Shown: piece by piece, positions 5,002 to 37,757 of the stretch
How positions within the stretch are numbered: position 1 is the first letter of the stretch
Layout: each line of letters starts with the position of its first letter
Source: Candidatus Omnitrophota bacterium
GTDB lineage: Bacteria; Omnitrophota; Gorgyraeia; Gygaellales; Profunditerraquicolaceae
Assembly (NCBI GenBank): GCA_016214325.1
Contig: JACROS010000005.1
Span: 1 to 40,175 of the forward strand
Reading direction: 5' to 3'
DNA: 40,175 nucleotides
The notes under the pieces: generated by a model
Database searches by the model: none
Told to the model about the DNA's origin: nothing
The model's input: the letters and a program-made list of their open reading frames with translations, nothing else
Program-made: the position numbers and the translations under genes

Positions 5002-5011
5002 CTCTAATTAT

Positions 5012-5926
5012 TTATTTTCTGACAAAAACAAGCAACGCCGATGAAATATAAACCCTGCCGAAACTAATAAAGTAAACTAAATTTGCCATTAAATTCAGGA
5101 AAATCTTTAATAACTCTGCTCCCTTCTCACTAAAATTAAACGATGCGTAAGGATTACCTTTCGTGAGAAAAGCATTTTTAACTTGAATATTACAGAAATT
5201 TGCCCTGCGCAGTAATTCTTTTATTGTTCTTGCGCTAAAGCCATAATTTACTATGATTGACGGGTCTTGAGCTTTCTTAAGAAATCTTTTCAACAAATAA
5301 AAGGTTTTGTGCAGACAGGAATGAAACAAAATATTGGGAACACGTATAATAAGAAACCCTCCGGGCCTTAGTATCCGATTAGTCTCCTTAAGCATAGATA
5401 GCGGATCACGCAAATGATCTAACACATTCCAAAGCGTAACTACATCAAAACTGCTCTTATCAAAATGCGCTTCCTCTATGCTTGAATTTAAAATCTCTAA
5501 CCCAAGTTTACTCTTTGCATACTCACACGCACCTTTTGACAATTCTATACCAGTAACCTCCCAGCCAGAAGACTTTGCTAAGTTTAAAAAGGTTCCAACA
5601 CCACAGCCAACATCAAGAATCTTTCCCTTTAGCCCATTGCGCCTTAATTCAATATCTGACAATGCTTTCTTAAAAACACTAACCCTGGCATCAGAAATCC
5701 TTTTTTCTAAATCTTGAGAGTGATGACTCTTACTAAAAAACTCTTTATTCAAATCCTCCCTTGGGCGAGGGTTGGCATAAACTAAGCCGCAATCAAGACA
5801 CTTAACAATATTAGTTCTTCCATAGTTATAGAGATGTTTAGTATTATTGTTGCCGCACAAATTACAACTTACAAACTCCTGGCCTCCTGGCAGAATATTC
5901 ATCATATTTCCTGTTTCCTTAACCAT
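5012..5926 (-). CDS. class I SAM-dependent methyltransferase with N-terminal Cys4 zinc ribbon
   Basis: 304 aa. Zinc ribbon CNLCG...x17...CLDCG, then ILDVGCGVGTFL (motif I) and FDVVTLWNVLDHLRDP. The C-terminal tail is hydrophobic. A better start is probably the ATG at 5905 (Met8). It forms an ATGA overlap with the upstream stop (TGA 5904..5902) and is preceded by AAGGAAACAGGAAAT. Confidence 0.8.
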   Translation of the reverse strand: MVKETGNMMNILPGGQEFVSCNLCGNNNTKHLYNYGRTNIVKCLDCGLVYANPRPREDLNKEFFSKSHHSQDLEKRISDARVSVFKKALSDIELRRNGLKGKILDVGCGVGTFLNLAKSSGWEVTGIELSKGACEYAKSKLGLEILNSSIEEAHFDKSSFDVVTLWNVLDHLRDPLSMLKETNRILRPGGFLIIRVPNILFHSCLHKTFYLLKRFLKKAQDPSIIVNYGFSARTIKELLRRANFCNIQVKNAFLTKGNPYASFNFSEKGAELLKIFLNLMANLVYFISFGRVYISSALLVFVRK

Positions 5927-7793: not shown

Positions 7794-8900
7794 TTAAGAA
7801 ACTGCCTTCTTATAAAAAACCTCATAATCACTGACCATCCGGATAAGATTAAATTTAGCTGCAGCAATTTTCCTGCCGTAAACACCCATTTCTCTGCTCA
7901 AGGCAACATCTTCAATCAATTTGATTATTGCTGCTTTCAATGCCTGGCTATCCTTAGGATTAAACAATATCCCGCTTTTACCATCTTCAACTGCCTCAGG
8001 AATTCCTCCTACATTGGTCGCAACAACAGCTAATCCCGAAGACATAGCTTCTAAAATCACGTTTGGCAAACCCTCTGTTAACGAAGATAAAATAAATATA
8101 TCAAAAACCGATAATAGTTCTTCAACATCGGTTCTCTTTCCGCAAAACCTAACATTTACATCAATACCAATCGCATTTGCATATTCACAGGCTTGGCTAT
8201 ATAAACCGCCGCTTCCTGCAACAATAAACTTTAAATCCGGGTATTTATCCTTAACCTTTGCTATTGCGTCAAAAGCAGTCTTATAATCTTTTACTAAGGC
8301 AAATTTTGTAATCATTCCAACAATGGCCCTGCTGTCTCCTAAATCCAAATCTGCCATAATCTTCGGATTCTTATGGCGAGGATAAAATTTAACCGTATCA
8401 ACACCGTTATAAATTGTAACTATCTTATTCTTTATAAATCTTTCAGTGGAAAGCGCATAATCCCTGGCTGCATTAGAACAAGCAACAACATGATCAGTAA
8501 AACAATTACTAAGATTAAGCAGCCAGCGGTGATAAAACTTCATCCATGAAGACAGCTCTCTTCGAGATGAAATAACACAACGAATTCCGGAAATCCTAGC
8601 TGGAAAAGTGGCAAGCAAATCAAAACCAAATAAATATGAATGCACAATATCAAACTTATGCTTTCTCATCAATATAAACAAATCTTTAATTATCCTAAAG
8701 TCATACACACTTTTTCTGTTTAAGGCAATAATATTTCTTCCCTCCAGCGATAATTTCTCGCCAAGCGAGCCAAAACCCTTGATACAACAAATCATCGGTT
8801 CAAAATCACGCTTATTTAGATTTTCAAACAAATTCAGCAAATGTTTTTCAGCACCTGCCTCATCTAAAATAGGAATTACAAAAAGTATACGAATTTTCAT
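7794..8900 (-). CDS. GT4-family glycosyltransferase (GT-B fold)
   Basis: MKIRILFVIPILDEAGAEKHLL is a Glyco_transf_4-type N-terminus. SSLTEGLPNVILEAMSSGLAVVATNVGGIPEAVEDGKSGILF is an E-x7-E Glycos_transf_1 motif. The ORF track extends to 8975, but the ATG at 8900 overlaps the upstream stop as ATGA (8897-8900) and gives the canonical N-terminus. Confidence 0.85.
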   Translation of the reverse strand: MKIRILFVIPILDEAGAEKHLLNLFENLNKRDFEPMICCIKGFGSLGEKLSLEGRNIIALNRKSVYDFRIIKDLFILMRKHKFDIVHSYLFGFDLLATFPARISGIRCVISSRRELSSWMKFYHRWLLNLSNCFTDHVVACSNAARDYALSTERFIKNKIVTIYNGVDTVKFYPRHKNPKIMADLDLGDSRAIVGMITKFALVKDYKTAFDAIAKVKDKYPDLKFIVAGSGGLYSQACEYANAIGIDVNVRFCGKRTDVEELLSVFDIFILSSLTEGLPNVILEAMSSGLAVVATNVGGIPEAVEDGKSGILFNPKDSQALKAAIIKLIEDVALSREMGVYGRKIAAAKFNLIRMVSDYEVFYKKAVS

Positions 8901-9733
8901 TGTTTGACAGCGTGAATAAGAACAGTTTTGCAGATATTTGTTCCTGAAGCCTTTAAAAGCTTTTGAGAGAAACAATTATAAATTTTTTCACTAATTCTTT
9001 GTCCGGAATAAAACTCGGAGTCGATGTTTAATATCTTAAATCCTAATTTATTAAAAAGAATACGTAATGCCTTAGAGTTAAACGCATAGAAATGCCATTC
9101 ATCAGCATCCTTGCGAAAGAAAGGCTTATTTAAAAGCCTTCTTAGGAACATCTCAATTAAAAAAGTATTTGGGACGGCCACAAAAAGATGCCCTCCGCTC
9201 TTTAGCGCTCTGTTTACTTGCCTAAGAGTGCCAAGCGGGCTATAAACATGCTCCAGTACTTGCCACATAGTTACCACATCAAAATAATCTAAAGGTAACC
9301 CTGCCTTTTCTACATACCCATGAAACATCTTAATATTTCTATGCTCAGATAAATAATCACAAACATACTTTGATATATCTGTACCAAAAACCTGCCAACC
9401 ATCATTCTTGGCAGTATACAAAAATAATCCCTGCCCAGTACCAATATCCAGAATCTTTCCCGAATTACAAAACCTTAAAACATAATTTAATCTCTTTCTT
9501 TTAAGGTCTATTTCTTTCCTAAAGTCATTTTTGACATTCACATAAAACTTTTCAATACTCGTTCCGTAATTTTTCTCAAAGTATGCCTTGCCATGAAAAT
9601 CCTGATGTTCGTCTTCAGAAGGCAATGGATCAATAAAAAACAACTGGCAAAATAAGCATTTATAAATACTATACTGCATCCATTTTTGATATAAGACTAA
9701 ATTCTTACTCTCGCAAACAGGGCAATTAATCAT
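8897..9733 (-). CDS. class I SAM-dependent methyltransferase with N-terminal Cys4 zinc ribbon
   Basis: 278 aa. CPVCES...CLFCQ ribbon, ILDIGTGQGLFL motif I and FDVVTMWQVLEHVYSP. It has the same architecture as the 5012..5926 product and is a clear but diverged paralogue. ATGA overlaps at both ends. Confidence 0.8.
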   Translation of the reverse strand: MINCPVCESKNLVLYQKWMQYSIYKCLFCQLFFIDPLPSEDEHQDFHGKAYFEKNYGTSIEKFYVNVKNDFRKEIDLKRKRLNYVLRFCNSGKILDIGTGQGLFLYTAKNDGWQVFGTDISKYVCDYLSEHRNIKMFHGYVEKAGLPLDYFDVVTMWQVLEHVYSPLGTLRQVNRALKSGGHLFVAVPNTFLIEMFLRRLLNKPFFRKDADEWHFYAFNSKALRILFNKLGFKILNIDSEFYSGQRISEKIYNCFSQKLLKASGTNICKTVLIHAVKQ

Positions 9734-10848
9734 TTTATAAATCTGTTCCTTAATTTATCCCAAACAAGCTCTCTGCCTTTTCCCGGCAAACTGCCGACCC
9801 AGCAGCCCTCAACCCTGCAAAGGCCAAACAAATCTGATCCTGCCCTTGGAATGTTCCATGAATTCATATAGCGGAATACCGTCTTAAAACCCAGCTCCTT
9901 AAGCCAAAGCACACTTAGATTTCCACCCATGTTCCAAGGAAAAGCAAAATGCAGGCACTGTTTATTAAGCCTGCTTTCTATTTCTAATTTGGATTTTTCT
10001 AGTGAATTCTTTATGGCTAATTCCTGTTCAATCTCATTTTCAAATCTGGTTTGTAGCTTATGAGCCTTTTTATAATCAACAACCGCCTTCTGAAGCTTCT
10101 CTTTCCATCCTCTACGAAGAAAAAAATCCCTGCCTCCGTTACTCTTTACAGTCTCAATACAAACTTGGCGTAAACCCGTATCGTCAAAAAATCTCCTAGC
10201 TAACAACCTTGGCTGATAGGGATAAACTGGCGACCCAAAAATGTTATCTTCGCTGGATTTATCTATTGCAGTAAAGAGCCAGGGATTAAGGGAAGATCCG
10301 TCTTTAGCCGGCCTTTCAAAATCAACAATTTTATCTGAAGTAAAACAAATCTTATGCTCCCAACTATGCGACTCAATATCAACTAAACCAGAGGCCTCCA
10401 TCTTACGCGCCTCTTGCCAACCGATAAATGGATGCTGCTTATCAAAACCCTTCAATTCTTGAAGAGTAATCTTTCCTGACCAAACATCTTCCAGGTTTGG
10501 GAGCAATCCGATTTCATCGCTAATATTGGAGGGATTGACATAAAAAACAGCCTTTGCATCATATTTCTTCAATAAAGGAAAAATTATACTCCAATTATTT
10601 CTTAAGCCGTCATCAAAAGTTATAATAACTTTCTTATTATTATCGTTTTTTCTTCCAGAAAGATAACCGTAATATTCCTCTATTCCAAGGGTTAAATAAT
10701 TATTTTTCTTTAAGTACAAGAGTTTTCTCTCAAAATCATCTTCTGCCTCTTTATGCAAAATAAAAGAAGGGATAACAAAACTATCAAGCTCATTATTAAA
10801 AATGGCAAAAGAAGGAATGGATGCCAGGAAACCCTGTTTCTTTATCAT
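9730..10848 (-). CDS. polysaccharide deacetylase (NodB-homology / CE4 family)
   Basis: 372 aa. VIITFDDGLRNNW is NodB motif 1 (TFDDG). IESHSWEHK is the H-x-x-x-H metal motif. FAFPWN lies later in the protein. Confidence 0.75.
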   Translation of the reverse strand: MIKKQGFLASIPSFAIFNNELDSFVIPSFILHKEAEDDFERKLLYLKKNNYLTLGIEEYYGYLSGRKNDNNKKVIITFDDGLRNNWSIIFPLLKKYDAKAVFYVNPSNISDEIGLLPNLEDVWSGKITLQELKGFDKQHPFIGWQEARKMEASGLVDIESHSWEHKICFTSDKIVDFERPAKDGSSLNPWLFTAIDKSSEDNIFGSPVYPYQPRLLARRFFDDTGLRQVCIETVKSNGGRDFFLRRGWKEKLQKAVVDYKKAHKLQTRFENEIEQELAIKNSLEKSKLEIESRLNKQCLHFAFPWNMGGNLSVLWLKELGFKTVFRYMNSWNIPRAGSDLFGLCRVEGCWVGSLPGKGRELVWDKLRNRFIK

Positions 10849-11945
10849 TTGCCCCCCGCTTTTGCAACTAACCTACTCCAGCGATTGCCCCAAAAAGATA
10901 GAGAAAAATCATTCTCTATTGTTTTACGGCCATTAAGCCCGAGATCTTTCCTTAAATTATTGTCCCAAATCAATAACTCAATTTTGTCTTTTAATTCCTC
11001 AGTGGAATTAAACAGAAATCCATTTACCCCGTCTTGAATAATATCATTTACCACTCCTACAGGGCTTGAGACCGCAGGTATCCCGTTTGCCATATATAAT
11101 AGAGCTTTAAACGCGCACTTTCTTCTATCCCAAAGAATATCATCAAGAAACATAACCCCTGCATCAGCCATGGCAAAAGCTTTCTTTTCATTCTCATAAG
11201 ACCAGGGAATAAAAAGAATTTCATCAGCTTCAAACCTGGGATCAGAAAAGCCCGCTCCATTACTTAAAACAAGCAATCTAACCTTATATTTTTTTGTTAA
11301 TTCTGAAATCGGCCCTAAATAAGAGCGCAGTTGAAAAAGCCCGCCCTCTGTTCCCGACCAAAGGATATTAAATACACCGTTCCTAAAATACCTTTCATCA
11401 AACGGCAAATAATCCAAGGTATTAACCGGAGTGGGAATTATAAATACGTTTGAATTAACGCCTTCTACATCTTCCTTTAACTTTTGATTTCCGACAAAAA
11501 TACAAGAACTCCGCTTGATAATTTTTAGAATCTGGCCCCTATCCTCTAACAGACGCAGGGGAAAACTGTTAAAATTCTGCACCGGAAAAAGATTAACTGC
11601 GTCGTCAAGATCAAAAATAATATTTCTATTAAACAAAAAAAGAAGCTTATCCATACCGCGAATCTGCAATGGCAAAATCCCTTTCTGGACCAACACAACA
11701 TCATATCGAAAGGAGAAAATTATCTGTCTTAGCCTGTTCAAAAACTCCAGTATATGAATTAAAGCCATAACAAATTTATTCTTGGCATTTGCAAATCTCT
11801 TATAAACAAAACCCGGCAAAGGAGGAGCAAACTTATACATAACTCCTTCATTATCTAAATAAGGCAGGAATTGAAATACCCTAAAGCGGGTACTCGGCTT
11901 ATCTTTAGAATATAGACTTAAAACCAATAATTTCTTATTTTGCAT
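10845..11945 (-). CDS. glycosyltransferase, GT-B fold (GT4/GT1-like)
   Basis: 366 aa. The C-terminal block KCAFKALLYMANGIPAVSSPVGVVNDIIQDGVNGFLF is typical of Glycos_transf_1. The N-terminal half is divergent. Confidence 0.65.
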   Translation of the reverse strand: MQNKKLLVLSLYSKDKPSTRFRVFQFLPYLDNEGVMYKFAPPLPGFVYKRFANAKNKFVMALIHILEFLNRLRQIIFSFRYDVVLVQKGILPLQIRGMDKLLFLFNRNIIFDLDDAVNLFPVQNFNSFPLRLLEDRGQILKIIKRSSCIFVGNQKLKEDVEGVNSNVFIIPTPVNTLDYLPFDERYFRNGVFNILWSGTEGGLFQLRSYLGPISELTKKYKVRLLVLSNGAGFSDPRFEADEILFIPWSYENEKKAFAMADAGVMFLDDILWDRRKCAFKALLYMANGIPAVSSPVGVVNDIIQDGVNGFLFNSTEELKDKIELLIWDNNLRKDLGLNGRKTIENDFSLSFWGNRWSRLVAKAGGK

Positions 11946-11954
11946 TTACTTAAT

Positions 11955-12989
11955 TTATTTCTTGAAAAGATTTCTAATTAAATTATTTCTTTTACAATAA
12001 AGCCTGCCGAGAGAGTTCCAAAGAGAATACAAGAAGCTATTAATAAATAGGTCATACTCTCCTAAAAAACTAACAAAATCCCCGCCTAAAGATTTCTTAT
12101 GCTGATAAATTCCCTGTAAGGCTTCTTTATCAGGCGGAACTCCACCAAGGTTAAACTCAGTATAATCATTCTCTTTAAGCCATTCCAGAATATGCCAATA
12201 CAAGAGTTGCGAAGATTTTACACTCGGCTTCTGCCTGATGACTCCCGACCAAACCTGCTCAGCCTTATTTCCAAACAACAATACTAAAGTTGCAGCCACA
12301 GGTTTGTCTTTATAAAAAGCGACAAAAATCCTCATCCTCTTTTTAGAATGAAGAGTTTTCCACAATTCTTCAAAGAATGCGTATTCTTTACAGGGCAGAG
12401 AGCGCTGCCTACAAGCAAAAGAATATACCTCATAGAAATACTCAAAAAACTCCCTGTCTTCATCGCTTTTAACCAAGACACCAGCCCGCTTTGCTTTCTT
12501 AAAATTGTCCCGAAGATTACTACTTAATTCCTTCCAGACTTCCTCGATATTTTTATTAAGGCCCCTCACAAATGTACATACATGCAATTCCCGCCTTTCA
12601 GACTTTCTAAAACCTGCATCGTTATACCAATTCAAGATTTCTGAAGGTTCCTTAATAGCAGGATTAATGCGACAGGTAACTGCCCTCTCTTTTGCAACCA
12701 TGCCTCTAATCTGTTGACTAAGAAAAATAAAACTGGCCCTGTCCAGAAAGATAGGGCCACGAGGAATATAAAACAAAGAAAAGGGCCCTTTTTTTCTTTT
12801 TAAGATTTGCGCTACAGCTTTTATCCTGCCTGCCTCTTTAACCATATACCTAAAAGGCAGCCATCCATCTATCCTGCAAATCTCACCCCAATCAAAAGTC
12901 TGATATATATGGCCAAACTCTGAGGATAAAACAAACTCATCCCAACCAGCAATTTCCTCAGCACTATCTTTTATTTCAATCAGTTCCAT
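11955..12989 (-). CDS. FemAB-family (aminoacyl-tRNA-dependent peptidyltransferase-like) protein
   Basis: 344 aa. FGHIYQTFDWGEI near the N-terminus resembles the FemAB 'FLQS.EWGE' block. ATLVLLFGNKAEQVWSG and the protein size fit the double-GNAT FemAB / EPS-locus FemAB-related family. Confidence 0.65.
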   Translation of the reverse strand: MELIEIKDSAEEIAGWDEFVLSSEFGHIYQTFDWGEICRIDGWLPFRYMVKEAGRIKAVAQILKRKKGPFSLFYIPRGPIFLDRASFIFLSQQIRGMVAKERAVTCRINPAIKEPSEILNWYNDAGFRKSERRELHVCTFVRGLNKNIEEVWKELSSNLRDNFKKAKRAGVLVKSDEDREFFEYFYEVYSFACRQRSLPCKEYAFFEELWKTLHSKKRMRIFVAFYKDKPVAATLVLLFGNKAEQVWSGVIRQKPSVKSSQLLYWHILEWLKENDYTEFNLGGVPPDKEALQGIYQHKKSLGGDFVSFLGEYDLFINSFLYSLWNSLGRLYCKRNNLIRNLFKK

Positions 12990-12998
12990 TTCTTCTAT

Positions 12999-14092
12999 TT
13001 AATCCTTTCCATCCAGGTACCAGACATTAAGATAACCATCATTATCTACAACAGCTGTATCAGGCATCTTCCAAAAAGGATTCCATTTCATCCGCTCCTC
13101 CAGCTTATACCCAGAATGCAGCAATATCCGCCTTGCCCTCTCATCCCTTTTTAGAATTGTACCTTCATAAAGCACGATCTTGCCGATATCCGTCATTAAA
13201 GCAAACATAGGTTTTGCCCTTCCGGAAAATACCCCGCAGTTGGTAATTTGTCTGGACAACCAGAGCCCTTTGTCTACACTAGTGCGAAAATGGCGCAATC
13301 CTTGCATCGGCACTGCATGAAAAAGATAATGTGCCTGAATACCCAAAGAACGCATTGCCTCATAACATTCTGGGAATATATAGTTGGAACAACCTCTCTG
13401 ATACGCGAAAAACAATCCCTGACCTCGGAAAAGAATTCTACCGCATGATTTGTCTGAGTGGCAATCTCGAACCTTATGCCGGGCTTGTTCCTGAAAACAT
13501 CCAAAACAGCATCGCTTACACGAGACGGATCCTGCTGAGGTAAACGTGTAGCAACCCTGATGATCTTAATATTCGAAGCGTATTGCATCAATGACTCTAC
13601 AAGATAAGCAAGGCTTTTTGGTACCAGAAAGGGGTCCCCGCCTGTAATTAAAACTTCGTTTACTTCGTCTTTCAACTGTTTACTTCCACAATACCGTGCA
13701 ACCATTTCAATATCCTGCTCGGTAAGAGTATACAAATCATATTTTTGGCGCAAACAATACCTGCAATGTGCTACACAGCTCATAGTAAGCTCAATAACCA
13801 CTGTCCTGCGATACAATCTTTCAACCCCCTTTACTCCACCTGTTTCACAAATAGAAATATCAGCATCATAATGCCTACGGTTTATTTCAGGCGTCTGAAT
13901 ATTCTCTTCTGGAAGCATTTTATACTGGCGCAGTATGCCTAAATAATTCTCATGCAAAGATCCATATTCAGCTAATAAAAATTTAAATTTTTGCTGTAAG
14001 AATGGAGACAGTTTTTCATGAAAAACACGTTTTTGACCAACATTAGCATTACTCTTTATTTGTTTTTTACTACCCATTGTTTTCTCCCGCAT
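12999..14092 (-). pseudogene. KamA-family radical SAM aminomutase (lysine 2,3-aminomutase-like), frameshifted
   Basis: The N-fragment 13274..14092 carries the MSCVAHCRYCLRQ CxxxCxxC cluster, ITGGDPFLVP and TQTNHAVE. The C-fragment 12999..13415, in a different frame, carries GIQAHYLFHAVPMQGLRHFRTSV...SGRAKPMFALMTDIGK, which corresponds to the PYYL..D...G..HF and SG...P blocks of KamA/EpmB. Both frames are open across 13274-13415. The probable start is the ATG at 14077, preceded by GGGAGAAA. Confidence 0.75.
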
Positions 14093-14990
14093 GCCTGGGC
14101 CTCAAGAACTTTGCTGGATTACCAACATAAACTCCTCCAGGAGCCAAATCTTTTACCACAACCCCTCCAATGCCCACAAATACATTATCTCCGATTTCAA
14201 TCTTATCCCTGATGCTGACATTAGGAGCCAACCAACAATCTTTTCCTAAACGAACATCGGCACTTACAACTGTGCCAGAAGCAATCATGGAACGTTCACC
14301 TATATAACAATTCTGGCCTATCTGCACAAGGTCATCAATTTTAACAAAGGCCTCTATAACAGTATCATCAATTTCAGCCCTCTCAATTGAAGTATTAGAC
14401 CCCACCCAAACGTTATCTGCAATTATTATTCTACCCAAGTAAGGAACGTGAATTGGCCGGAGTTCCTCATCAAATTCAAAACTATAACCTTCACTGCCGA
14501 TAGTAGAATTATCTTTAATTACGCAATTCTTTCCAATTAAAACTTGTCCTGTTATAACAACATTATTTAAAATAATAGTATTGTCCCCAATAACCACATC
14601 AGGCCCAACCACAGAATTATTGCCAATATAAACATTCACCCCTATCCTTGCACCAGGAGCAATCCTGGCAGTTGGCTCAGTAAGCCTGACATTCTTTTCT
14701 ACAAAAAACTCATTTAGTATACGCACAAAAGCAAGTCTCGGCTTTAAAGAAACAATGTAAGAAAATTCTACCTTATTTTCTATCTGCCCGGGAGAAACAA
14801 CTGCCAGGATTTTTCTTTTATTAGAGAGCGCTGTCTCTTTTTCAAGAGGGCCCAACAAAACAACAGTCCCTTCTTTTAAATCCTTAACAGAACCCGGTTC
14901 TTTTACTATAAAATCATCTCCATTTAGATCTAAATTCAAAACTTCTGCAATTTCAGAAGCAAACACATCAGCCTGCCTTTTTTTATACAT
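14070..14990 (-). CDS. LpxD-like left-handed beta-helix (hexapeptide-repeat) N-acyltransferase
   Basis: 306 aa. The N-terminal ~100 aa resemble the LpxD nucleotide-binding domain (...IVKEPGSVKDLKEGTVVLL...VSLKPRLAFVRILNEFF). Many [LIV]G-x4 hexapeptide repeats follow. There is no LpxD C-terminal helical extension. A GGAGGG SD precedes the ATG at 14990. Confidence 0.7.
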   Translation of the reverse strand: MYKKRQADVFASEIAEVLNLDLNGDDFIVKEPGSVKDLKEGTVVLLGPLEKETALSNKRKILAVVSPGQIENKVEFSYIVSLKPRLAFVRILNEFFVEKNVRLTEPTARIAPGARIGVNVYIGNNSVVGPDVVIGDNTIILNNVVITGQVLIGKNCVIKDNSTIGSEGYSFEFDEELRPIHVPYLGRIIIADNVWVGSNTSIERAEIDDTVIEAFVKIDDLVQIGQNCYIGERSMIASGTVVSADVRLGKDCWLAPNVSIRDKIEIGDNVFVGIGGVVVKDLAPGGVYVGNPAKFLRPRHAGENNG

Positions 14991-15011
14991 AACAACCCTC
15001 CATAATAATTC

Positions 15012-16313
15012 TTAGAGAACGCGTTCCAAGCGCCTTGTTTTTCCTTCGGTTTTAGGAAAAACGCCCGCTTTTAGAAACCTCATCTCAGGCCTGAGGCCCA
15101 GTTTATGCTTAAACAAATTCTCAAGCTCGTGAATTACTATCTGGTTAATTTTATCAGTTTTTGCCTCAAGACAAATAACAAAATGCTCAATGGGATCGTT
15201 TCGGTCAACTTGAACCCTAAAATCACCAGTTAGAATATCCAAACGCTGATTTATTATATCTGCAACTGAACTTAAAAAAACATTCACGCCCTTAACAACA
15301 ATCATATCTTCCCTGCGTCCAACAACGCGAAATCGCGGGCTCATTCTTCCACAGGAACATAAACCCATTCCAATCACCTCAACAATATCACAGGTTTTAT
15401 AGCGCACCAAAGGCTGCATTTCCTTGCATAAGTTAGTAAGCACAAGCTCACCCCTTGCTCCCACATCCCACGGAATTGTTTTCTGGCTGGATTCATCACA
15501 AATTTGCGCATGAATAACACCTTGGCCCATAAAATGCAGCCCTGCTCTTTCTCTGCATTCAGAGGCAAACATACTCAAAACATCCGACATGCCGTAATTT
15601 GCATTCATAGCCCTCAATCCCCATCTTTTCTCAATATTCTCCCTGAAGTCATCATTTTCTAACCCTCCTTCTCCTCCAAAAAGCCCTATTTTTAAGCCAA
15701 GCTTGGAAGGAGCAATAGAAAACTCAAGCCTAAGCAAATCTTCCAGTTTAGAAAGATACGACGGAGTGCAGTGGATGCCAGTTGGTTTTATTGTTAATAT
15801 TGTCTGGATAAGATTGGATGAATTACCCACTCCATACGGTATAACTGCTGCTCCGGCTTTCTCCAGGCTTTCATGATCAGTCAATCCTCCAGCCCACATA
15901 CAATAATTCAGGCAATGCACTATCATATCTCGGGGCCGGACGCCAGCAGACCAGAAACAGCGTGCCCCGCATTCTAAAGTATGCTCTAAATCGTTATTTG
16001 AAAAAGCTAAAATTAAAGGTTCAGTGCTTGTCCCTGAAGTTTTATGCACCCTTTGGATATTTGTAATCTTTCCGGATAAATTACTTCCAAAAGGAGGATA
16101 TCTTTTTTCATCATCCAGAATTTCCTGTTTAGTGGTAAAAGGAAGCTTCTCAAGATCCTCCAAAGAAACAACCGATATTTTCCTAAATTTTTCATGATAG
16201 AATCTGCTATTTTCCAAGACATACTTTATCTGCTTTTTAAATAATGGCTCTGCCACCTCCTCCTCCAGACAGCGCCAATCATATGTTTCAAATTTACTCC
16301 AGATTTCTTTCAT
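15012..16313 (-). CDS. PaaK/CapK-family adenylate-forming enzyme (phenylacetate-CoA ligase / coenzyme F390 synthetase-like)
   Basis: 433 aa. HKTSGTSTEPL is the AMP-binding core motif (TSGTTG-like). The size and the C-terminal VVKGVNVF...GKTRR block fit the PaaK/CapK subfamily. An AGGAGA SD lies upstream. Confidence 0.8.
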   Translation of the reverse strand: MKEIWSKFETYDWRCLEEEVAEPLFKKQIKYVLENSRFYHEKFRKISVVSLEDLEKLPFTTKQEILDDEKRYPPFGSNLSGKITNIQRVHKTSGTSTEPLILAFSNNDLEHTLECGARCFWSAGVRPRDMIVHCLNYCMWAGGLTDHESLEKAGAAVIPYGVGNSSNLIQTILTIKPTGIHCTPSYLSKLEDLLRLEFSIAPSKLGLKIGLFGGEGGLENDDFRENIEKRWGLRAMNANYGMSDVLSMFASECRERAGLHFMGQGVIHAQICDESSQKTIPWDVGARGELVLTNLCKEMQPLVRYKTCDIVEVIGMGLCSCGRMSPRFRVVGRREDMIVVKGVNVFLSSVADIINQRLDILTGDFRVQVDRNDPIEHFVICLEAKTDKINQIVIHELENLFKHKLGLRPEMRFLKAGVFPKTEGKTRRLERVL

Positions 16314-16346
16314 TATTCTATTGTCTCCTGAACACTAATCATATTT

Positions 16347-17393
16347 CTAACATTGTTTCCCTGGACGACGATACATCAATTCATCTCCGGATAAAAAGAA
16401 AACATCAGGGCATTCACGCATATCTGAACAAAAAGGAGCATCTGGTAAAGAATAATACTGTGTTCTTAAACGGTCACAAATTCTATAACCCAAAGAAAAT
16501 GCTGTAGAAAAGATATTTTTATCACTGGTCATAAATAAAGCTCTCTTAGAAGATTTAAATTTAGTATATACTACAAAGGCTGCTAAAATATCTTCTTTAG
16601 AATGAGTTACGTCACATAATACATCTGCTAAAGCAATATAACCTTTTCGCGCATCGTTAAATTCAGAAATAAACAAATACGACAACCTGCCCCTTAAACG
16701 CACAGAAACAAGCTTAGCGTGATTATAAGGCTGAAGCATATAATGCTTCCATTTTCTTATAAGAAAACTTCTCTCAATATTTTGTGAAAAGAACTGCCAA
16801 CCCTTAAAATCCAATAGCCTATCAACGGAAAATTCTTCATTCTTAAAAATAACGCTATTCTTAGAACTAAATTTATCTGCAACTCTCAAGCCTTGAAAAT
16901 AAGATACCGGATTTAGAATAAAATTACGAGTCTTGCGTGCTAAATCTCTTAAGCCGAATATTTTATTTGCTTCTATGCCTAATAAGAATACTTCCCCAAT
17001 ATCCCTGAACCCCACTGATATCTGCGGCTCAAAACATATTTTTGTACCACCTACCGCAACAGAAACAGGAAACTGATCCATGAGCGCCTTTAATATCCTC
17101 CTGCCGGCGCCCTTAACCGGACTTTTTGTACTGCTATACCAGTCCACAGGAAAACAAACTTGCAGTTCCTTACCGTTAACAATATACTTCCAGACTATGC
17201 CTCCGACTATAGAGCAAATTTCACCATCTTGCTCAAGCAATAAACAAATATTTTCATCTGCTTCCTGACTAAGATACTTCCATTTAAGGTATTCTTGGCT
17301 GACAGAAGGAGAATTTATATTTGCCCCTTTGGCAACTGCCAAGAAATCAGCACATAACTTAAGGTTGCCGTTATCAAGTTTACGAATATTCAT
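16347..17393 (-). CDS. hypothetical protein, possible two-domain GNAT-fold acyltransferase
   Basis: 348 aa with a good AGGAG SD. The N-terminal third (EYLKWKYL...ICLLLEQDGEICSIVGG...VKGAGRRILKALM) resembles a GNAT core with a Q/R-x-x-G-x-G/A-like acyl-CoA loop. I do not recognise the remainder. Confidence 0.4.
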   Translation of the reverse strand: MNIRKLDNGNLKLCADFLAVAKGANINSPSVSQEYLKWKYLSQEADENICLLLEQDGEICSIVGGIVWKYIVNGKELQVCFPVDWYSSTKSPVKGAGRRILKALMDQFPVSVAVGGTKICFEPQISVGFRDIGEVFLLGIEANKIFGLRDLARKTRNFILNPVSYFQGLRVADKFSSKNSVIFKNEEFSVDRLLDFKGWQFFSQNIERSFLIRKWKHYMLQPYNHAKLVSVRLRGRLSYLFISEFNDARKGYIALADVLCDVTHSKEDILAAFVVYTKFKSSKRALFMTSDKNIFSTAFSLGYRICDRLRTQYYSLPDAPFCSDMRECPDVFFLSGDELMYRRPGKQC

Positions 17394-17415
17394 AAATCAC
17401 TGCTCCTAGGCTACG

Positions 17416-18093
17416 CTATTTCCGGCCCAGATAAAATATTCCAAAAGGCATAAGCTGGGCTTGTTTATACTTAGTGAAGAATACATCAAATAATTTAACA
17501 GGCAAAACAAACCAGCCAAAAATATAATAATAGCAAACATGAAATAAGACATCATTATTAAATGAAAAAAATATTGCCAGATATGTCCTCAAAACATGTG
17601 CGAAAGCGGCACTTGGCCCTGAGATAATCCCTGATTTAATTTTGTTAAACCCTGCTTCTTTAAATATCTCTTCAAGGCCAAGCTGAGTAAATCTCTGAAA
17701 ATCATAAGGAGCGCCGTGGACTATCTGAAAAAATGGCGTTTCAACAAAAACATATCCCTTATCCTTAAGTACCCTGTAAATTTCTTTACTGCATAATCGG
17801 GGATTCTTTAAGTGCTCAACAACTCCACCTAACCAAACAAATCCAATGGAATTATCCAGAAACGGCAGGCAATGTGCATCCGCAGACACATCTATTCCAC
17901 AGCATGCTTCAAACTCAAGCTTAATTGCACCTTTAACAATTGGCCTCTGTCCACAGCCGATATCCAAAACAGGAATATTCTGCTCTAAAAGCGGCAATAC
18001 ATCTTTCCTTGCCTGCGCCACATCTTTCTTTAACATTACACAACTGTGTGGAAGAACCATACAGCTTAAAATCTTCTTCATCGTCTTTATCAT
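17416..18093 (-). CDS. class I SAM-dependent methyltransferase
   Basis: 225 aa. VLDIGCGQRP is motif I; LPFLDNSIGFVWLGGVVEHLKNP and KGYVFVETP follow. The C-terminal ~45 aa are hydrophobic. An AGGAG SD lies upstream. Confidence 0.75.
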   Translation of the reverse strand: MIKTMKKILSCMVLPHSCVMLKKDVAQARKDVLPLLEQNIPVLDIGCGQRPIVKGAIKLEFEACCGIDVSADAHCLPFLDNSIGFVWLGGVVEHLKNPRLCSKEIYRVLKDKGYVFVETPFFQIVHGAPYDFQRFTQLGLEEIFKEAGFNKIKSGIISGPSAAFAHVLRTYLAIFFSFNNDVLFHVCYYYIFGWFVLPVKLFDVFFTKYKQAQLMPFGIFYLGRK

Positions 18094-18111
18094 AAAACTA
18101 CTCCTAGAAAA

Positions 18112-19647
18112 TCAACAAACATTACACTTACCCCTGTTCCTTCTTACGGCTCTGACAAAAGGAAGGACAAAATTATTCAGTGACAGATCAAACAACTTTC
18201 TAATCGAAGAAGGAGATTCTTTATAAATAGCATTATATAATGGATAAAGCAGAAACTTTTTATTAAAAATATCTTTCCCCGCCAAACTAAACCCAATAAA
18301 GATTCTTCTTAAAACATGTTTTAGAGAAGCATTTTCTTCCATAAACTTGTCGTGATAATTAAGGATAGTAAACTCATCTAAGCCAAATGGAACAAACATC
18401 GGCCTCTCTGTACTCCTGTAATCCTCCCACTTGTTTGACAAAATAATCCCTGTGTCCTTAGCAATATCATTGAATAACTTTGTGCCAACATAAGGAGTCA
18501 TACATTGAAAAACATACCTAAAAGGCCTTAATTGCCTAATCAGCCCAATTGATTGATCGATCGTTTCTTTGGTTTCATGTGGATGGCCTATAATCATTAA
18601 TGCCAATGTTGCTATGCCAACTTCGTGTGTCAGAGAAAAGGCATTTTTTATCTTATCAATCGTAATCTTTTTATTCGCTCGATCCAGAATCTGCTGATTT
18701 CCAGATTCTACTCCATAACAAATCTTCACACAGCCAGCTTTCTTCATTAAAAGCAATGTCTCTTTATTCACCTGATCAACCCGGGCTAAACATCTCCATT
18801 TGATATTAACTTTATCTTCAATCAGGCTCTGGCAAAATTGGTATAAAAAATCTTTTCTTAAAGTTAAGCCGTCATCAAGAAAAACAAAATACCGAATATT
18901 ATATGTATTTTTAAGCAGTTTTATTTCATTGATCACATTCTCTACTGACCTAAAGCGTATTTTTCGTTTCCAATAATCAGGGGAACTGCAAAATATACAT
19001 TCATATGGGCATCCGCGGGAAGCCATTACTTCAATCATGGAATTGCCAAAAATCCTCTCCCCCGAAAAATACTCCTTCATAGGCAGCAATTCCCTGGCAG
19101 GTAAAGGCAGGTCATTCAAATCTTCTATAAAACCCCTGTCCTCTGTTACAACAAGCTCATTATTCTGCAGAAAGGCCAGCCCTTTGATTTGCTGAAAATC
19201 TTTACTTTTATTCTCTATTGCCCTGATTAACTCAGAAAATGTCTTTTCTCCTTCTCCACGAATTATGAAATCAATAAAGCTTGGTTTTTGAGCCAACAAT
19301 TCCTTATAGCAGTATGTGGCATGAATCCCTCCCAAAACAACATTTAAATCAGGATTATCCTGTTTTAAATTCCTGGCAAGATTACATCCATTTGTTATTT
19401 GATGCGTCATGCCAGTAATCCCTACAATATTAAACCCTCCATTCGTAACATACTCGCTAATCTTATCATCAGCCACAAATGAAGCAGGCATATCAAGAAT
19501 ATCAATGTCATAACCATTCTTTTTCATATAAGCAGCCAAATAAGCCAAGCCAAAAGGAGGATGCTTATCCTCACTAATATCAATACCGCTACCGGGATAT
19601 GTTCTCGGGTTAATTAATAAAATCTTTATTCTCTTATTATTAATCAT
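18112..19647 (-). CDS. B12-binding-domain radical SAM enzyme (class B radical SAM, methyltransferase-like)
   Basis: 511 aa. The N-terminal IKILLINPR...PPFGLAYLAAYMKKNGYDIDILDM is a cobalamin-binding Rossmann-type domain. ASRGCPYECIFCSS is the CxxxCxxC cluster. Confidence 0.85.
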   Translation of the reverse strand: MINNKRIKILLINPRTYPGSGIDISEDKHPPFGLAYLAAYMKKNGYDIDILDMPASFVADDKISEYVTNGGFNIVGITGMTHQITNGCNLARNLKQDNPDLNVVLGGIHATYCYKELLAQKPSFIDFIIRGEGEKTFSELIRAIENKSKDFQQIKGLAFLQNNELVVTEDRGFIEDLNDLPLPARELLPMKEYFSGERIFGNSMIEVMASRGCPYECIFCSSPDYWKRKIRFRSVENVINEIKLLKNTYNIRYFVFLDDGLTLRKDFLYQFCQSLIEDKVNIKWRCLARVDQVNKETLLLMKKAGCVKICYGVESGNQQILDRANKKITIDKIKNAFSLTHEVGIATLALMIIGHPHETKETIDQSIGLIRQLRPFRYVFQCMTPYVGTKLFNDIAKDTGIILSNKWEDYRSTERPMFVPFGLDEFTILNYHDKFMEENASLKHVLRRIFIGFSLAGKDIFNKKFLLYPLYNAIYKESPSSIRKLFDLSLNNFVLPFVRAVRRNRGKCNVC

Positions 19648-21747: not shown

Positions 21748-23004
21748 TTAAACTACCTCCCATTTGTAAGGAAAAGATGTCATTCCTGGACGGCCGTCAA
21801 ATTGCCTGCCGCTTAAGAAACTATTTCCGATTTCAAAAGAAAGTATATGCTCTGACCAATCATAAATCACCTTCAAAGGGCCAAAGATGCCGACAGAAAT
21901 AGTATATCTTCCCGGCATAAGAAAATTAGGATCAATAATCAACGCGCATTTAATGCGGCTACCCTGATTGCCTTTTATTTTCTCGGCATTATCATAATAA
22001 AAAGAAGTCAAAACAGTATCGCCAAAACTGTTATAAATAAAAACCCAAGGGATAATAGTTAAATCCTGATGAAAAGATTCAATATCAATTACCACCCTCA
22101 AAGGTTCCCATATATCAAATTGCCTGGATGATTTCCCGTCTAAGGCTTCTATGGATGCAGAAATAACTGAAGCTGAGCTTGTTTTAACGCGCTTCTTATC
22201 ACTAGCAATCAAACCAGAATTATTTATATTCTCTTGGGTTAAAACATTTTTCATGTATTTACCGATTATCTCTCCAGAATTGCCTATAGCCTCTACTCTT
22301 CCCTTCTCAAGGAATATCGCCTTCTCACACAGATATCTGACCAGCCCCATATTATGGCTGACAAAAATTACTGTACGCCCAAGCTTAGCCATATCATCCA
22401 TCTTTCCTAAGCATTTTTTTTGAAATGCCAAATCGCCAACAGCCAAAACTTCATCAACCAGCAAAATCTCTGTTTCTAAATAAGCTGCTACGGCAAAAGT
22501 CAGGCGGACATACATACCGCTGGAATAGCGTTTAACCGGTGTATCAATAAATTTAGAAATCTCTGTAAAAGCAATTATTTCATCGAGCTTGCGGTCAATC
22601 TCTCGCTTAGACATGCCTAACACAGCCCCATTCATATAAATATTTTCTCTTCCAGTAAGCTCAGGATGAAAACCAGTGCCCACCTCAAGAAGACTGCCTA
22701 TCCTGCCACAAATCTCAACCCTGCCTTTTGTCGGCTCGGTAATACGAGAAAGAATTTTTAGAAGCGTTGATTTACCGGCGCCATTTCTTCCGATTATTCC
22801 CACGACTTCAGACCTTTTTAATTCAAAGCTTACATCCTTTAATGCCCAGACAAGATTATCCTGAGCCGGATTCTTCTTTTTTTGTTTCCTTAATAAACCG
22901 CTGAAAGAATCACTCAATAAATCACGCAGGGTATCATGGCGCATCGTCTCGCCTATCCTGTAAGATTTTGATATTCTATCAACCTTTATAATAGCTTCAC
23001 TCAT
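21748..23004 (-). CDS. wzt: ABC transporter ATP-binding protein Wzt/TagH type with C-terminal glycan-binding domain
   Basis: 418 aa. GIIGRNGAGKSTLLKIL is Walker A, YSSGMYVRLTFA the signature motif and LLVDEVLAVGD Walker B. About 165 further beta-rich residues (…RVVIDIESFHQD…YTISVGIF…) lie where Wzt_C carbohydrate-binding modules sit. ATGA overlap with wzm. Confidence 0.9.
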   Translation of the reverse strand: MSEAIIKVDRISKSYRIGETMRHDTLRDLLSDSFSGLLRKQKKKNPAQDNLVWALKDVSFELKRSEVVGIIGRNGAGKSTLLKILSRITEPTKGRVEICGRIGSLLEVGTGFHPELTGRENIYMNGAVLGMSKREIDRKLDEIIAFTEISKFIDTPVKRYSSGMYVRLTFAVAAYLETEILLVDEVLAVGDLAFQKKCLGKMDDMAKLGRTVIFVSHNMGLVRYLCEKAIFLEKGRVEAIGNSGEIIGKYMKNVLTQENINNSGLIASDKKRVKTSSASVISASIEALDGKSSRQFDIWEPLRVVIDIESFHQDLTIIPWVFIYNSFGDTVLTSFYYDNAEKIKGNQGSRIKCALIIDPNFLMPGRYTISVGIFGPLKVIYDWSEHILSFEIGNSFLSGRQFDGRPGMTSFPYKWEVV

Positions 23005-23834
23005 ATAATATCTGCAAACGTCCTTTCTAAACGTTTAAAGTAGAACAAGCCGGAAACAAAAATAATGACAGAAATTAAAGCCTGTAAAACCAGCCAATTC
23101 CAGCTAAAAGTTATCCCCAAAAAGGCCCAACGCAATCCATCAATTGCTCCAGTAACCGGATTTAAATAATACAACCAGAGATATTTTTGAGGAATAGCGG
23201 ATTTAAGATAAGCAACTGGAGTTAAGAAAAAAAGTATTTGAATAAAATAGGGCAAGATCTTTCCTACATCACGGAATCTTACACTAATAGCAGCTGCCCA
23301 TAACCCAACACCGCTTGATACCAAAGTAATTAAAACTATAAAAATTGGCAAGAAAATGATAGGCAAGGATAATGGAACCCTGAGATAAAACATCATTAAA
23401 ATAAGCAGTATAGCCGCAATCACAAAATCTAAAAGCGCCCTTAAAACCACAGATAATGGAACAATTAAGCGCGGGAAATATATCTTTGAAATTAAATTTG
23501 TGTTTGTTAACATTGCATTGCCTGCTCCATTGACAATCTCAGAGAAATAACTCCAGGCAATGGTTCCGCTTAAAGTTATTAATACATACGGAACTCCGGA
23601 AGAAGGGAATTTCGCAATAACACCGAAAACGAATGCCCAGACAAACATCTGCATAAGAGGATTAATTAACGCCCAAGAAACTCCCAAGAAAGTCTGCTTA
23701 TAGCGAACCTTAATATCCCTTAAAGCAAGAAAATAAAACAGTTCTCTATACTGCCATAATTCATACAGTTTTAGACAAGCCCATCCTTTTGTAGGCTCAA
23801 TTACTATTTTCTTTAATGCATCAGTCTTTCTCAT
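23001..23834 (-). CDS. wzm: ABC-2-type polysaccharide export permease Wzm/TagG type
   Basis: 277 aa. The RELFYFLALRDIKVRYKQTFLGVSWALINPL signature is followed by six hydrophobic segments. The gene lies immediately upstream of, and is coupled to, wzt. Confidence 0.85.
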   Translation of the reverse strand: MRKTDALKKIVIEPTKGWACLKLYELWQYRELFYFLALRDIKVRYKQTFLGVSWALINPLMQMFVWAFVFGVIAKFPSSGVPYVLITLSGTIAWSYFSEIVNGAGNAMLTNTNLISKIYFPRLIVPLSVVLRALLDFVIAAILLILMMFYLRVPLSLPIIFLPIFIVLITLVSSGVGLWAAAISVRFRDVGKILPYFIQILFFLTPVAYLKSAIPQKYLWLYYLNPVTGAIDGLRWAFLGITFSWNWLVLQALISVIIFVSGLFYFKRLERTFADII

Positions 23835-29485: not shown

Positions 29486-29493
29486 CAACCGCC

Positions 29494-31913
<2,420 letters not shown>

Positions 31914-31921
31914 TTATCCCT

Positions 31922-32560: not shown

Positions 32561-32562
32561 AC

Positions 32563-33297: not shown

Positions 33298-33307
33298 GGG
33301 CTTTATA

Positions 33308-34570: not shown

Positions 34571-34573
34571 CAA

Positions 34574-37746: not shown

Positions 37747-37757
37747 ATAATTCTCCT

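Follow-up and report, generated by a model that had tools for sequence, protein, structure and literature searches.

Why should a relative of lysine 2,3-aminomutase be encoded in the middle of a glycan locus? The question is raised by a stretch of 40,175 nucleotides from a Candidatus Omnitrophota bacterium (GCA_016214325.1, contig JACROS010000005.1, positions 1 to 40,175; the whole stretch is called the window below), in which seven genes, among them one for a KamA-like radical S-adenosylmethionine (SAM) enzyme, were confirmed at 11955-19647 within one unbroken run of minus-strand genes. The seven are closely spaced, with gaps of 2-33 nt and an overlap of 23 nt between the KamA-like gene and that of a left-handed beta-helix (LbH) acyltransferase. 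A first-pass annotation, made from the letters alone, had read the whole block as a single module that decorates a glycan with a methylated beta-aminoacyl or peptidyl substituent, and its seven family-level calls all hold on Pfam and NCBIfam profiles, that of the orphan protein on structure.

The answer that we favor, at roughly even odds (about 0.5), is that an N-acetylhexosamine is de-N-acetylated and then re-acylated by a non-lysine beta-amino acid activated by coenzyme A (CoA), that the gene cassette for this chemistry is horizontally exchanged, and that the FemAB-family gene of the block belongs to a second module.

A cassette in the variable center of a glycan locus

The window is a long Omnitrophota glycan locus that uses ABC-transporter (Wzm/Wzt) export, and the seven-gene block within it is a mosaic of three separable modules, not one evolutionary unit. 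The first is a four-gene cassette consisting of an orphan tandem-GNAT-like protein (348 residues, 16347-17393), a PaaK-like adenylate-forming, probably CoA, ligase (433 residues, 15012-16313), an LpxD-like LbH N-acyltransferase (306 residues, 14070-14990), and a KamA-superfamily radical SAM enzyme, a putative 2,3-aminomutase (12999-14092; 379 residues in its intact form, disrupted here). The second is a trio of FemAB, glycosyltransferase, and CE4 deacetylase genes that recurs without the cassette, and the third, a B12-binding radical SAM enzyme and a 225-residue methyltransferase, is part of the conserved backbone. All of these genes lie on the minus strand. The variable center of the locus comprises two separable amine-acylating modules around a shared pair of glycosyltransferase and CE4 de-N-acetylase genes.

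This make-up emerges from comparison with other loci (numbered with an L). L096, from a Candidatus Omnitrophota metagenome-assembled genome (MAG; GCA_016208765.1, JACQXK010000032.1), is collinear with positions 823-27102 of the window. Its flanking genes are 69-95% identical to those of the window (77% for the B12-binding radical SAM enzyme, 77% for the 225-residue methyltransferase, and 90% for Wzt), its central GT4, CE4, glycosyltransferase, and FemAB genes only 38-57%. The four cassette genes are absent from L096, and the methyltransferase gene directly abuts that for FemAB. In L003, the cassette proteins are 91% (the N-terminal part of the KamA-like protein; 77% in its C-terminal part), 88% (LbH), and 84% (PaaK-like) identical to those of the window and the shared backbone genes only 41-64%. 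Because the cassette genes are so much more alike than the backbone genes around them, the comparison points to a laterally exchanged insertion in the variable center of an Omnitrophota glycan locus. Taken together, L096 and L003 show how such a locus diversifies, with whole acylation modules swapped around a fixed pair of glycosyltransferase and deacetylase. GC content was considered as evidence of transfer and set aside, as the KamA-like and PaaK-like genes are slightly GC-richer (0.41, against about 0.36) and unrelated genes of the locus are GC-richer too. Viewed along their length, the window and L096 differ in a serotype-like manner, with a divergent center (7794-17393; 38-57% identity) between conserved flanks (74-95% amino acid identity), plus the inserted cassette and an extra methyltransferase gene at 8897-9733. 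This likeness assigns the window to Omnitrophota.

In the window, L003, L004/5 (on a contig assigned to Patescibacteria by binning), and L006-9 (Omnitrophica GWA2_50_21), the cassette genes keep the order orphan, PaaK-like, LbH, KamA-like wherever the flank suffices. The PaaK-like gene always follows the orphan in six lineages (window/L001, L003, L004/5, L006-9, L019, and L100); L019 has the orphan, PaaK-like, and KamA-like genes without the LbH gene, and L100 has at least the orphan and then the PaaK-like gene. A scan of genome contigs with two narrow peptide patterns found only 4 loci, and a scan of metagenomes, described below, was more informative.

Could all seven genes nevertheless serve one pathway, in which FemAB would extend a beta-aminoacyl substituent into a peptidyl one on an amino sugar derived from FdtA and DegT (37758-39283), and the B12-binding radical SAM enzyme and the methyltransferase would methylate it? 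The tight packing on one strand speaks for this, as do L023, a distant locus in which a FemAB-like gene (25% identity) directly follows a KamA-like gene, and the paralogues of the B12-binding enzyme that lie about 3-7 kb from the triad of PaaK-like, LbH, and KamA-like genes in L025, L039, L045, and L048. The precedent from streptothricin-type chemistry is also real, since in the BD-12 pathway an amino sugar is glycylated by a FemAB-like enzyme that depends on tRNA (PMC12945691). We nonetheless regard a single pathway as distinctly unlikely. L096 holds FemAB, the B12-binding enzyme, and the methyltransferase together without the cassette; L003, L004/5, and L006-9 hold the cassette without FemAB or the B12-binding enzyme; and FemAB travels with the glycosyltransferase and CE4 genes in L094-L096. 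FdtA and DegT had been put forward as the source of the acceptor, and this idea fares no better: the pair lies 18 kb away, adjoins a GNAT gene of its own, and is not retained alongside the cassette, since in L003, L004, and L006 neither member has a homologue less than 10 kb from it. The conserved neighbors are CE4 or PIG-L de-N-acetylases.

What survives of the earlier proposal is thus its core. The co-occurrence of aminomutase, ligase, and LbH genes outside this contig is widespread, sometimes in fused form, whereas the four-way combination with FemAB and the B12-binding enzyme was never found elsewhere, and L023 is the only locus that pairs the triad with a FemAB-like gene. In terms of chemistry, the scheme is borne out in part for the four cassette genes and is plausible for FemAB, and it lacks support for the FdtA/DegT link, the B12-binding enzyme, and the methyltransferase, with no specific support found for methylation of the substituent by either of the last two.

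The aminomutase-like, ligase, and acyltransferase triad

Does the cassette reflect a wider association? The metagenome scan returned 263 relatives of the KamA-like protein, from which 80 loci were kept. Where at least 4.5 kb lay upstream of the KamA-like gene, an LbH gene was found within 5 kb in 25 of 35 loci, usually immediately upstream, a PaaK-like gene in 20, and both in 19. Since this core arrangement recurs in many unrelated contigs, it is far beyond chance, and the triad, with its optional tandem-GNAT partner, is a conserved and apparently undescribed association; a search of the open-access literature for an aminomutase combined with O-antigen, capsule, nucleotide sugar, or PaaK returned nothing relevant, which is an absence of evidence only. 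In one protein (P0064, 651 residues) an LbH domain (residues 9-297) is fused to a KamA-like domain (342-613). A sugar de-N-acetylase gene, of PIG-L or CE4 type, is nearby in many, though not all, of the triad loci.

Other ligases can take the place of the PaaK-like enzyme. An ATP-grasp domain is fused to a KamA-like one in L011 (309-2690), ANL ligases adjoin the KamA-like gene in L071 and L075, as does a PGM1-type ATP-grasp in L082, and L060 combines it with WbqC and an Antibiotic_NAT-like protein. In Lachnospiraceae and Roseburia MAGs, KamA-like, ATP-grasp, and PIG-L genes stand beside glycosyltransferase genes (L012, 3371-7378; L013, 8772-11781). In L041 the order is UDP-GlcNAc 2-epimerase, PIG-L, PaaK, LbH, LbH, KamA, Bac_transf, and PglD, while the glycosyltransferase and CE4 pair fills the deacetylase position in the window, L003, and L004. 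The aminomutase-like gene is therefore the constant element, and the ligation enzyme and the deacetylase are each exchanged for non-orthologous enzymes; it is chiefly this replacement around a constant KamA-like gene that underlies the logic we propose. The joint occurrence of aminomutase, ligase, and LbH genes is in keeping with a beta-amino acid being activated and then passed to an amino sugar. The particular hosts are uncultivated; the L012 and L013 sets, being of gut-type Firmicutes, are possible cultivable models for the predicted chemistry.

Perhaps, alternatively, the product of the cassette is a small soluble compound, for example a secondary metabolite or an osmolyte of the N-acyl-beta-amino acid type, and the setting in a glycan locus is coincidental. 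Pairing of KamA and GNAT proteins does resemble the AblA/AblB route to N-epsilon-acetyl-beta-lysine, and for some members of the clade (L082, L052) the neighbors are PGM1-like peptide ligases or transporters, not glycan genes. The triads of the window, L003, L004, L006, L028, L041, and L023, by contrast, sit among glycosyltransferases, sugar de-N-acetylases, a nucleotidyltransferase, a UDP-GlcNAc 2-epimerase, and a Bac_transf gene. Furthermore, the LbH protein is LpxD-like, and the N-terminal domain with which LpxD itself binds UDP is present in two relatives, L041a and P0064. A soluble product thus appears very improbable.

The KamA-like enzyme

The KamA-like gene is present in the window as two overlapping open reading frames (ORFs), at 13274-14092 (272 residues) and 12999-13415 (138 residues), a split that the first-pass annotation had missed. 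Alignment with three homologues reveals a clean 46-nt deletion with its junction at 13361-13364, which shifts the frame and takes out a conserved LLKGVNDNKESLLDL stretch (the LLKGVND... segment). A Logan contig, SRR12113407_159653 (42,804 nt), matches the window at 100% identity to either side of the lesion, has the 46 nt, and encodes the intact 379-residue protein; L014, a contig from another sample that is 98% identical, likewise carries the stretch intact. Because both contigs have it, the lesion is specific to the copy in the window, as a variant or an artefact, and is not a feature of the lineage, in which we treat the gene as functional.

What might the intact enzyme do? The CxxxCxxC motif for the [4Fe-4S] cluster and SAM is present as CVAHCRYC in the window ORF and in every homologue. 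In lysine 2,3-aminomutase (LAM; structure 2A5H), R134, two residues past the third Cys of that motif, is the arginine that binds the alpha-carboxylate of the substrate, D293 and D330 are the acidic residues that bind the epsilon-amine of lysine, and K337 is the lysine that holds pyridoxal phosphate (PLP). The equivalent of R134 is present and invariant among the aligned homologues (C-L-R, aligned with C-T-R of 2A5H). At the position of Asp293 the clade has Val or Ile, with Val in the window protein (YLFHAVP against YIYQCDL). Further on, G314-K315 of an M-T-D-I-G-K motif is invariant and lies at the distance expected for the PLP lysine; the HMMER alignment to 2A5H ends at residue 329. These features would suit an aminomutase with a substrate other than lysine: since the cluster motif, the carboxylate-binding arginine, and the invariant GK are kept while Asp293 is replaced by Val, we read the protein as a putative 2,3-aminomutase for a non-basic amino acid.

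Profile scores place the protein outside each named group. Against the general KamA model (TIGR00238), intact homologues score 122-132 bits, with a cutoff of 199.2; against the equivalogs for lysine 2,3-aminomutase (AblA/KamA) and EpmB, the scores are 100-131 bits, with cutoffs of 369-525; and across the KamA-family models overall (EpmB, AblA, and the glutamate and arginine aminomutases) the clade scores 100-135 bits, below all NCBIfam cutoffs. By these measures the KamA-like proteins are a distinct, deep clade of the superfamily. It counts 912 proteins at E<=1e-30, mostly of 360-370 residues, which carry the database labels "lysine 2,3-aminomutase" (JGI) or "radical SAM protein" (NCBI). Hosts, by MAG label, include Omnitrophica/Omnitrophota, Patescibacteria, Planctomycetales, Syntrophorhabdaceae, Desulfobacteraceae, and Lachnospiraceae/Roseburia.

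A clade that falls below even the general KamA cutoff and is without the side-chain-binding Asp293 may, of course, have left aminomutase chemistry behind. The triad might then N-acylate a sugar with something other than a beta-amino acid, the PaaK-like enzyme activating an aryl- or hydroxy-alkanoate (its nearest relatives act on phenylacetate or 2-hydroxyisobutyrate) and the KamA-like enzyme carrying out a different radical SAM reaction, for example isomerization of an attached aminoacyl group or some other rearrangement. We consider this unlikely. The KamA-type cluster motif, the carboxylate-binding arginine, and the invariant GK at the expected place are all kept, and wherever neighbors were examined, a carboxylate-activating or amide-forming enzyme (PaaK, ANL, ATP-grasp, or PGM1-like) adjoins the KamA-like gene. 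Such a constant ligase neighbor is what would be expected if the product of the KamA-like enzyme were itself the acid being ligated, as in the beta-amino acid pathway that we favor.

The ligase and the two acyltransferases

The PaaK-like enzyme matches the PaaK structure 4R1L over its full length (1e-55, residues 24-429) and also 2-hydroxyisobutyryl-CoA synthetase (6HDW). Its TSGTS P-loop and C-terminal GK (EGK) align, PF14535 is matched at 8e-7, and the PaaK equivalog model TIGR02155 gives 214.8 bits, with a cutoff of 646.3. PaaK enzymes form acyl-CoA, and the product here is presumably an acyl-CoA.

The LbH protein has unmistakable hexapeptide repeats (PF00132, 95 bits against a gathering threshold of 27, in 5 stretches, 1e-27), and its closest structural matches are LpxD, yet it scores 189.6 bits against the LpxD model TIGR01853, with a cutoff of 242.5. 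The catalytic histidine of LpxD (His239 in E. coli) lies in a QIAHN motif that reads QIGQ(N/S) here, with Gln in all four orthologues; across wider LbH relatives the position is His in some and Tyr, Ser, or Ala in others. The protein also ends 13 residues past the last coil and the 4E75 alignment, and 4E75 runs about 45 residues further; the C-terminal helical domain, which contacts acyl carrier protein (ACP) in LpxD, is absent. To judge from its sequence, the LbH enzyme is LpxD-derived and is not LpxD. The loss of that domain would suit a CoA donor, and an ACP gene was not seen.

A second histidine of the LbH protein deserves mention. His181 of the window protein (PIHVPY, at about 14448-14450) belongs to a P-[IL]-H-x-P motif whose His is kept in nine of the ten KamA-associated LbH proteins compared, and with the canonical LpxD histidine being variable, it could be a relocated catalytic base. 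Some triad loci, furthermore, have two LpxD-like LbH paralogues (L041, 8159-9996; L028, 6786-7769 and 9089-9994), one of which keeps the LpxD catalytic histidine, while the copy that adjoins the KamA-like gene is without it. By analogy with the LbH and tandem-GNAT proteins of the window, this pairing suggests two distinct acyl-transfer steps.

The orphan has no Pfam or NCBIfam match. An AlphaFold model from 5 sequences only was unusable (mean predicted local confidence, pLDDT, of 56); once weak relatives had been added, the final model from a 25-sequence alignment reached a pLDDT of 93 and a predicted template-modeling (TM) score, pTM, of 0.91. In a Foldseek search of the PDB its best matches are tandem-GNAT N-acyltransferases (E about 1e-9, TM scores of 0.5-0.56), including the Eis-like 2OZG, 2HV2, and 3N7Z, N-myristoyltransferases, and the clavulanate tandem GNAT 2WPW, which upholds the earlier description of the protein as GNAT-like. 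A V-K-G-A-G-R motif is invariant, and the weak relatives show sub-threshold matches to Acetyltransf_9, _7, and _1. The protein is rare, with only 4 homologue clusters in 5.8e9 proteins and about 6 strong representatives in 1.84e9. Exact-sequence look-ups for it and for a 304-residue methyltransferase gave no match, the gene starts probably having been called differently.

Might these simply be neighboring genes of ordinary pathways, with EpmB acting on elongation factor P (EF-P), PaaK in phenylacetate catabolism, and LpxD in lipid A synthesis? The top-scoring NCBIfam models do bear those names. Every score, however, lies far below the curated cutoffs, the LpxD catalytic histidine and C-terminal domain are absent, and conserved synteny and fusions bind the three genes together, which leaves such readings hardly tenable; we rejected the EpmB, PaaK-catabolism, and LpxD assignments alike on cutoffs, context, and catalytic residues. 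The first-pass annotation had named these same pathways as the ones that would undo it, and among window ORFs of at least 100 residues there is no Pfam match typical of EpmA, EF-P, phenylacetate catabolism, or lipid A synthesis.

A proposed pathway

From family chemistry and gene context we infer the following steps. The KamA-like radical SAM/PLP enzyme would turn a non-basic alpha-amino acid into its beta-isomer, which the PaaK-like ligase would activate with ATP, probably as the CoA thioester, and the LpxD-like LbH enzyme would move the beta-aminoacyl group to the free amine of a hexosamine. That amine would arise by de-N-acetylation of an N-acetylhexosamine, by analogy with the action of LpxC and then LpxD. 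The tandem-GNAT orphan may add a second acyl-CoA-dependent N-acylation, for example one that caps or extends the beta-amino group, or it may substitute for the LbH enzyme in lineages without it (e.g., L019). FemAB, finally, would aminoacylate an amine from aminoacyl-tRNA, either the same sugar amine, as an alternative route, or the new beta-amino group. The former is proposed because FemAB travels with the same glycosyltransferase and CE4 pair; in loci with both modules, the latter may be its target instead.

Several points weigh against this pathway. The aminomutase ORF is disrupted in the window, and with the LAM alignment stopping before K337, PLP dependence rests on the invariant GK, the putative PLP lysine. 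PaaK relatives usually take aryl- or alkyl-acetates, not amino acids. The LbH enzyme is without the catalytic histidine and C-terminal domain of LpxD, and its donor, which might be CoA, an adenylate, or a carrier, is presumed, as is its acceptor. Of 12 triad loci in which the KamA-like gene is flanked by 4.5 kb or more to either side, only 5 showed a CE4 or PIG-L gene, and CE4 enzymes often act on polymers, not nucleotide sugars; the level of acylation may therefore be the nucleotide sugar or a lipid-linked intermediate.

It is tempting to generalize further. Perhaps the entire KamA-like clade consists of 2,3-aminomutases for non-basic amino acids whose beta-products are amide-linked onto surface glycans by interchangeable installers (PaaK-like plus LbH enzymes, tandem GNAT, or ATP-grasp or ANL ligases) acting on de-N-acetylated hexosamine, the whole forming a laterally exchanged, antigen-diversifying cassette. 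We advance this tentatively, at somewhat less than even odds. If true, glycans would gain a substituent of a new class, and the characterized lysine, glutamate, and arginine 2,3-aminomutases would be joined by one of new specificity, useful for beta-amino-acid biocatalysis. Radical SAM aminomutases would have been recruited into polysaccharide tailoring, together with a CoA-dependent, LpxD-derived sugar N-acyltransferase that works without the canonical catalytic histidine, and the surfaces of uncultivated phyla and gut Lachnospiraceae would widely carry beta-aminoacyl amino sugars, a chemistry that has so far gone unseen.

The FemAB module and the backbone genes

The FemAB/FemX-family protein (344 residues, 11955-12989) scores 91.8 bits against PF02388, for which the gathering threshold is 24 (5e-26). 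It aligns with FemX structures over residues 11-321, with Lys305 of FemX falling on a lysine in YQHKK; that residue is described as catalytic, and FemX-type enzymes use aminoacyl-tRNA (PMC12945691). Only about ten homologues were found, three of which (L094, L095, and L096) lie in trios of FemAB, glycosyltransferase, and CE4 deacetylase genes with no cassette within 9 kb.

The glycosyltransferase of the trio (GT1 family, 366 residues, 10845-11945; Pfam Glycos_transf_1 and Glyco_trans_1_4) is the partner of the deacetylase, and its orthologues, 44-48% identical, adjoin a CE4 gene in L003, L004, L094, L095, and L096. The CE4 polysaccharide de-N-acetylase itself (372 residues, 9730-10848) matches PF01522 at 1e-17, has TFDDG and HSWEH motifs, and shows no obvious signal peptide, which suits cytoplasmic action, probably its location, in an ABC-transporter pathway. 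Its orthologues, 49-59% identical, occur with the cassette (L003, L004) or with FemAB (L094-L096), and it is the proposed generator of the acceptor amine.

The B12-binding radical SAM enzyme (511 residues, 18112-19647) is above the gathering thresholds of both PF02310 (83.7 bits, 1e-23) and PF04055 (80.2 bits, 3e-22) and below the cutoffs of the BchE, ApyD, HpnJ, and PhpK models. Its 77% orthologue lies in the cassette-less L096; L003 holds only a 29% paralogue, and none lies near the cassettes of L004 or L006. The class I SAM methyltransferase (225 residues, 17416-18093; Pfam Methyltransf_23 and Methyltransf_11) has orthologues of 51-53% identity within 3.3 kb of the cassette in L003, L004, and L006, as well as in L096 (77%, without the cassette) and L094 (49%).

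Other features of the locus

The AsnB-like gene (5902-7768) is split into two ORFs, with 127 nt of unrelated sequence at 6635-6761 in place of 139 nt. The segment replaced encodes a conserved ...SGDGGDELFAGY... region, and SRR12113407_159653 has an intact AsnB of 626 residues. A third difference from that contig, at about 626-666, is a deletion of about 70 nt with several mismatches, in a methyltransferase/GT2 gene that runs off the low end of the window. Together, the three lesions suggest that this copy carries several local defects, minor variants or artefacts. The idea of a decaying locus, to which the KamA and AsnB lesions had given rise, was dropped on finding both genes intact in the otherwise identical public contig.

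At 823-3676 and 21748-23834 the locus encodes both an ABC export pair, Wzm plus a Wzt that bears the glycan-binding Wzt_C domain, and a MurJ/Wzx-like flippase accompanied by a protein with a Wzy_C domain. Either export or ligation takes two routes here, or the protein with the Wzy_C domain acts as a WaaL-type ligase. About 10 SAM methyltransferase genes or domains, including FkbM-type ones and a fusion of methyltransferase and GT2, are spread over the 40 kb (4141-5926, 8897-9733, 17416-18093, 25993-27102, and 29494-35311), an abundance that implies either that the glycan is heavily methylated or that a methylated chain terminator serves the Wzt_C domain. Two large proteins, of 816 residues (within 35314-37764) and 759 residues (within 27209-29488), are a protein with only a spermine/spermidine-synthase-like domain and a PMT_2 (GT-C-like) membrane protein, respectively. 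In L006, an AbiEii/DUF6088 toxin-antitoxin-like pair (5929-7534) is inserted in the Omnitrophica glycan locus, adjoining AsnB.

Comparison with known systems

LpxC and then LpxD carry out de-N-acetylation of a UDP-GlcNAc derivative and its N-acylation by an LbH trimer. The cassette resembles this sequence in that its LbH protein is nearest LpxD, a de-N-acetylase gene lies nearby, and an acetyl group would be removed and another acyl group installed. It differs in that the LbH protein is below the LpxD cutoff, has Gln for the catalytic His, and lacks the C-terminal helical domain; in that the deacetylase is of CE4 or PIG-L type, not LpxC; in that the donor is probably an acyl-CoA made by the PaaK-like enzyme, not acyl-ACP; and in its setting, a glycan locus and not lipid A synthesis. 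NodB/NodA, MshB/MshC, and BshB/BshC offer a second likeness, as a CE4 (NodB-type) or PIG-L (MshB/BshB-type) deacetylase makes the acceptor amine for a nearby amide-forming enzyme. Their acylating enzymes are unrelated, no homology to NodA, MshC, or BshC having been seen, and the donor proposed here is a beta-amino acid.

Among glycan loci, the N-tetronylation of perosamine in Vibrio cholerae O1 (RfbK-O) uses an acyl-CoA-ligase-like enzyme, a carrier protein, and a hexapeptide acyltransferase. There, as here, an O-antigen-type locus has its own carboxylate-activating enzyme and LbH transferase for an unusual N-acyl group; however, the ligase is of another family, no carrier protein gene was seen here, and no aminomutase is involved there. 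PEP-CTERM/XrtA exopolysaccharide loci, with FemAB (TIGR03019), AsnB, and acyl-CoA ligase genes, likewise combine FemAB- and AsnB-family genes in a locus of similar type, but the window FemAB scores 58 bits against a TIGR03019 cutoff of 260, and Pfam scans of window ORFs of at least 100 residues found no exosortase or PEP-CTERM genes.

The systems that do employ an aminomutase make small molecules. In AblA/AblB and the KamA/YodP pair of Bacillus subtilis, as here, a KamA-family enzyme is encoded beside a GNAT-fold N-acyltransferase; those make a free osmolyte or metabolite from lysine, whereas here, in a glycan locus, the GNAT is a tandem protein that does not match AblB in sequence and is accompanied by a ligase and a sugar acyltransferase, and AblA model scores fall below the cutoffs. 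In streptothricin, a 2,3-aminomutase supplies the beta-lysine that an amide bond joins to an amino sugar. In BD-12, the FemAB-like Orf11 glycylates streptothrisamine from Gly-tRNA (PMC12945691). Both are actinomycete small-molecule antibiotics with NRPS-type (nonribosomal peptide synthetase) adenylation, in contrast to the polysaccharide locus, PaaK-like ligase, and LbH or tandem-GNAT transferases considered here; the aminomutase here is without the lysine-binding Asp293, and FemAB and the cassette are evolutionarily separable. The enzyme set recurs in none of LpxC/LpxD, NodB/NodA, MshB/MshC, V. cholerae O1, and streptothricin/BD-12, and no polysaccharide pathway with an aminomutase is among them. 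Chemically, streptothricin and BD-12 appear to be the closest known systems, with a radical SAM aminomutase, ATP-dependent activation, an amide bond to an amino sugar, and the modification of a sugar amine by a transferase of the FemAB family all finding their counterparts in the predicted pathway.

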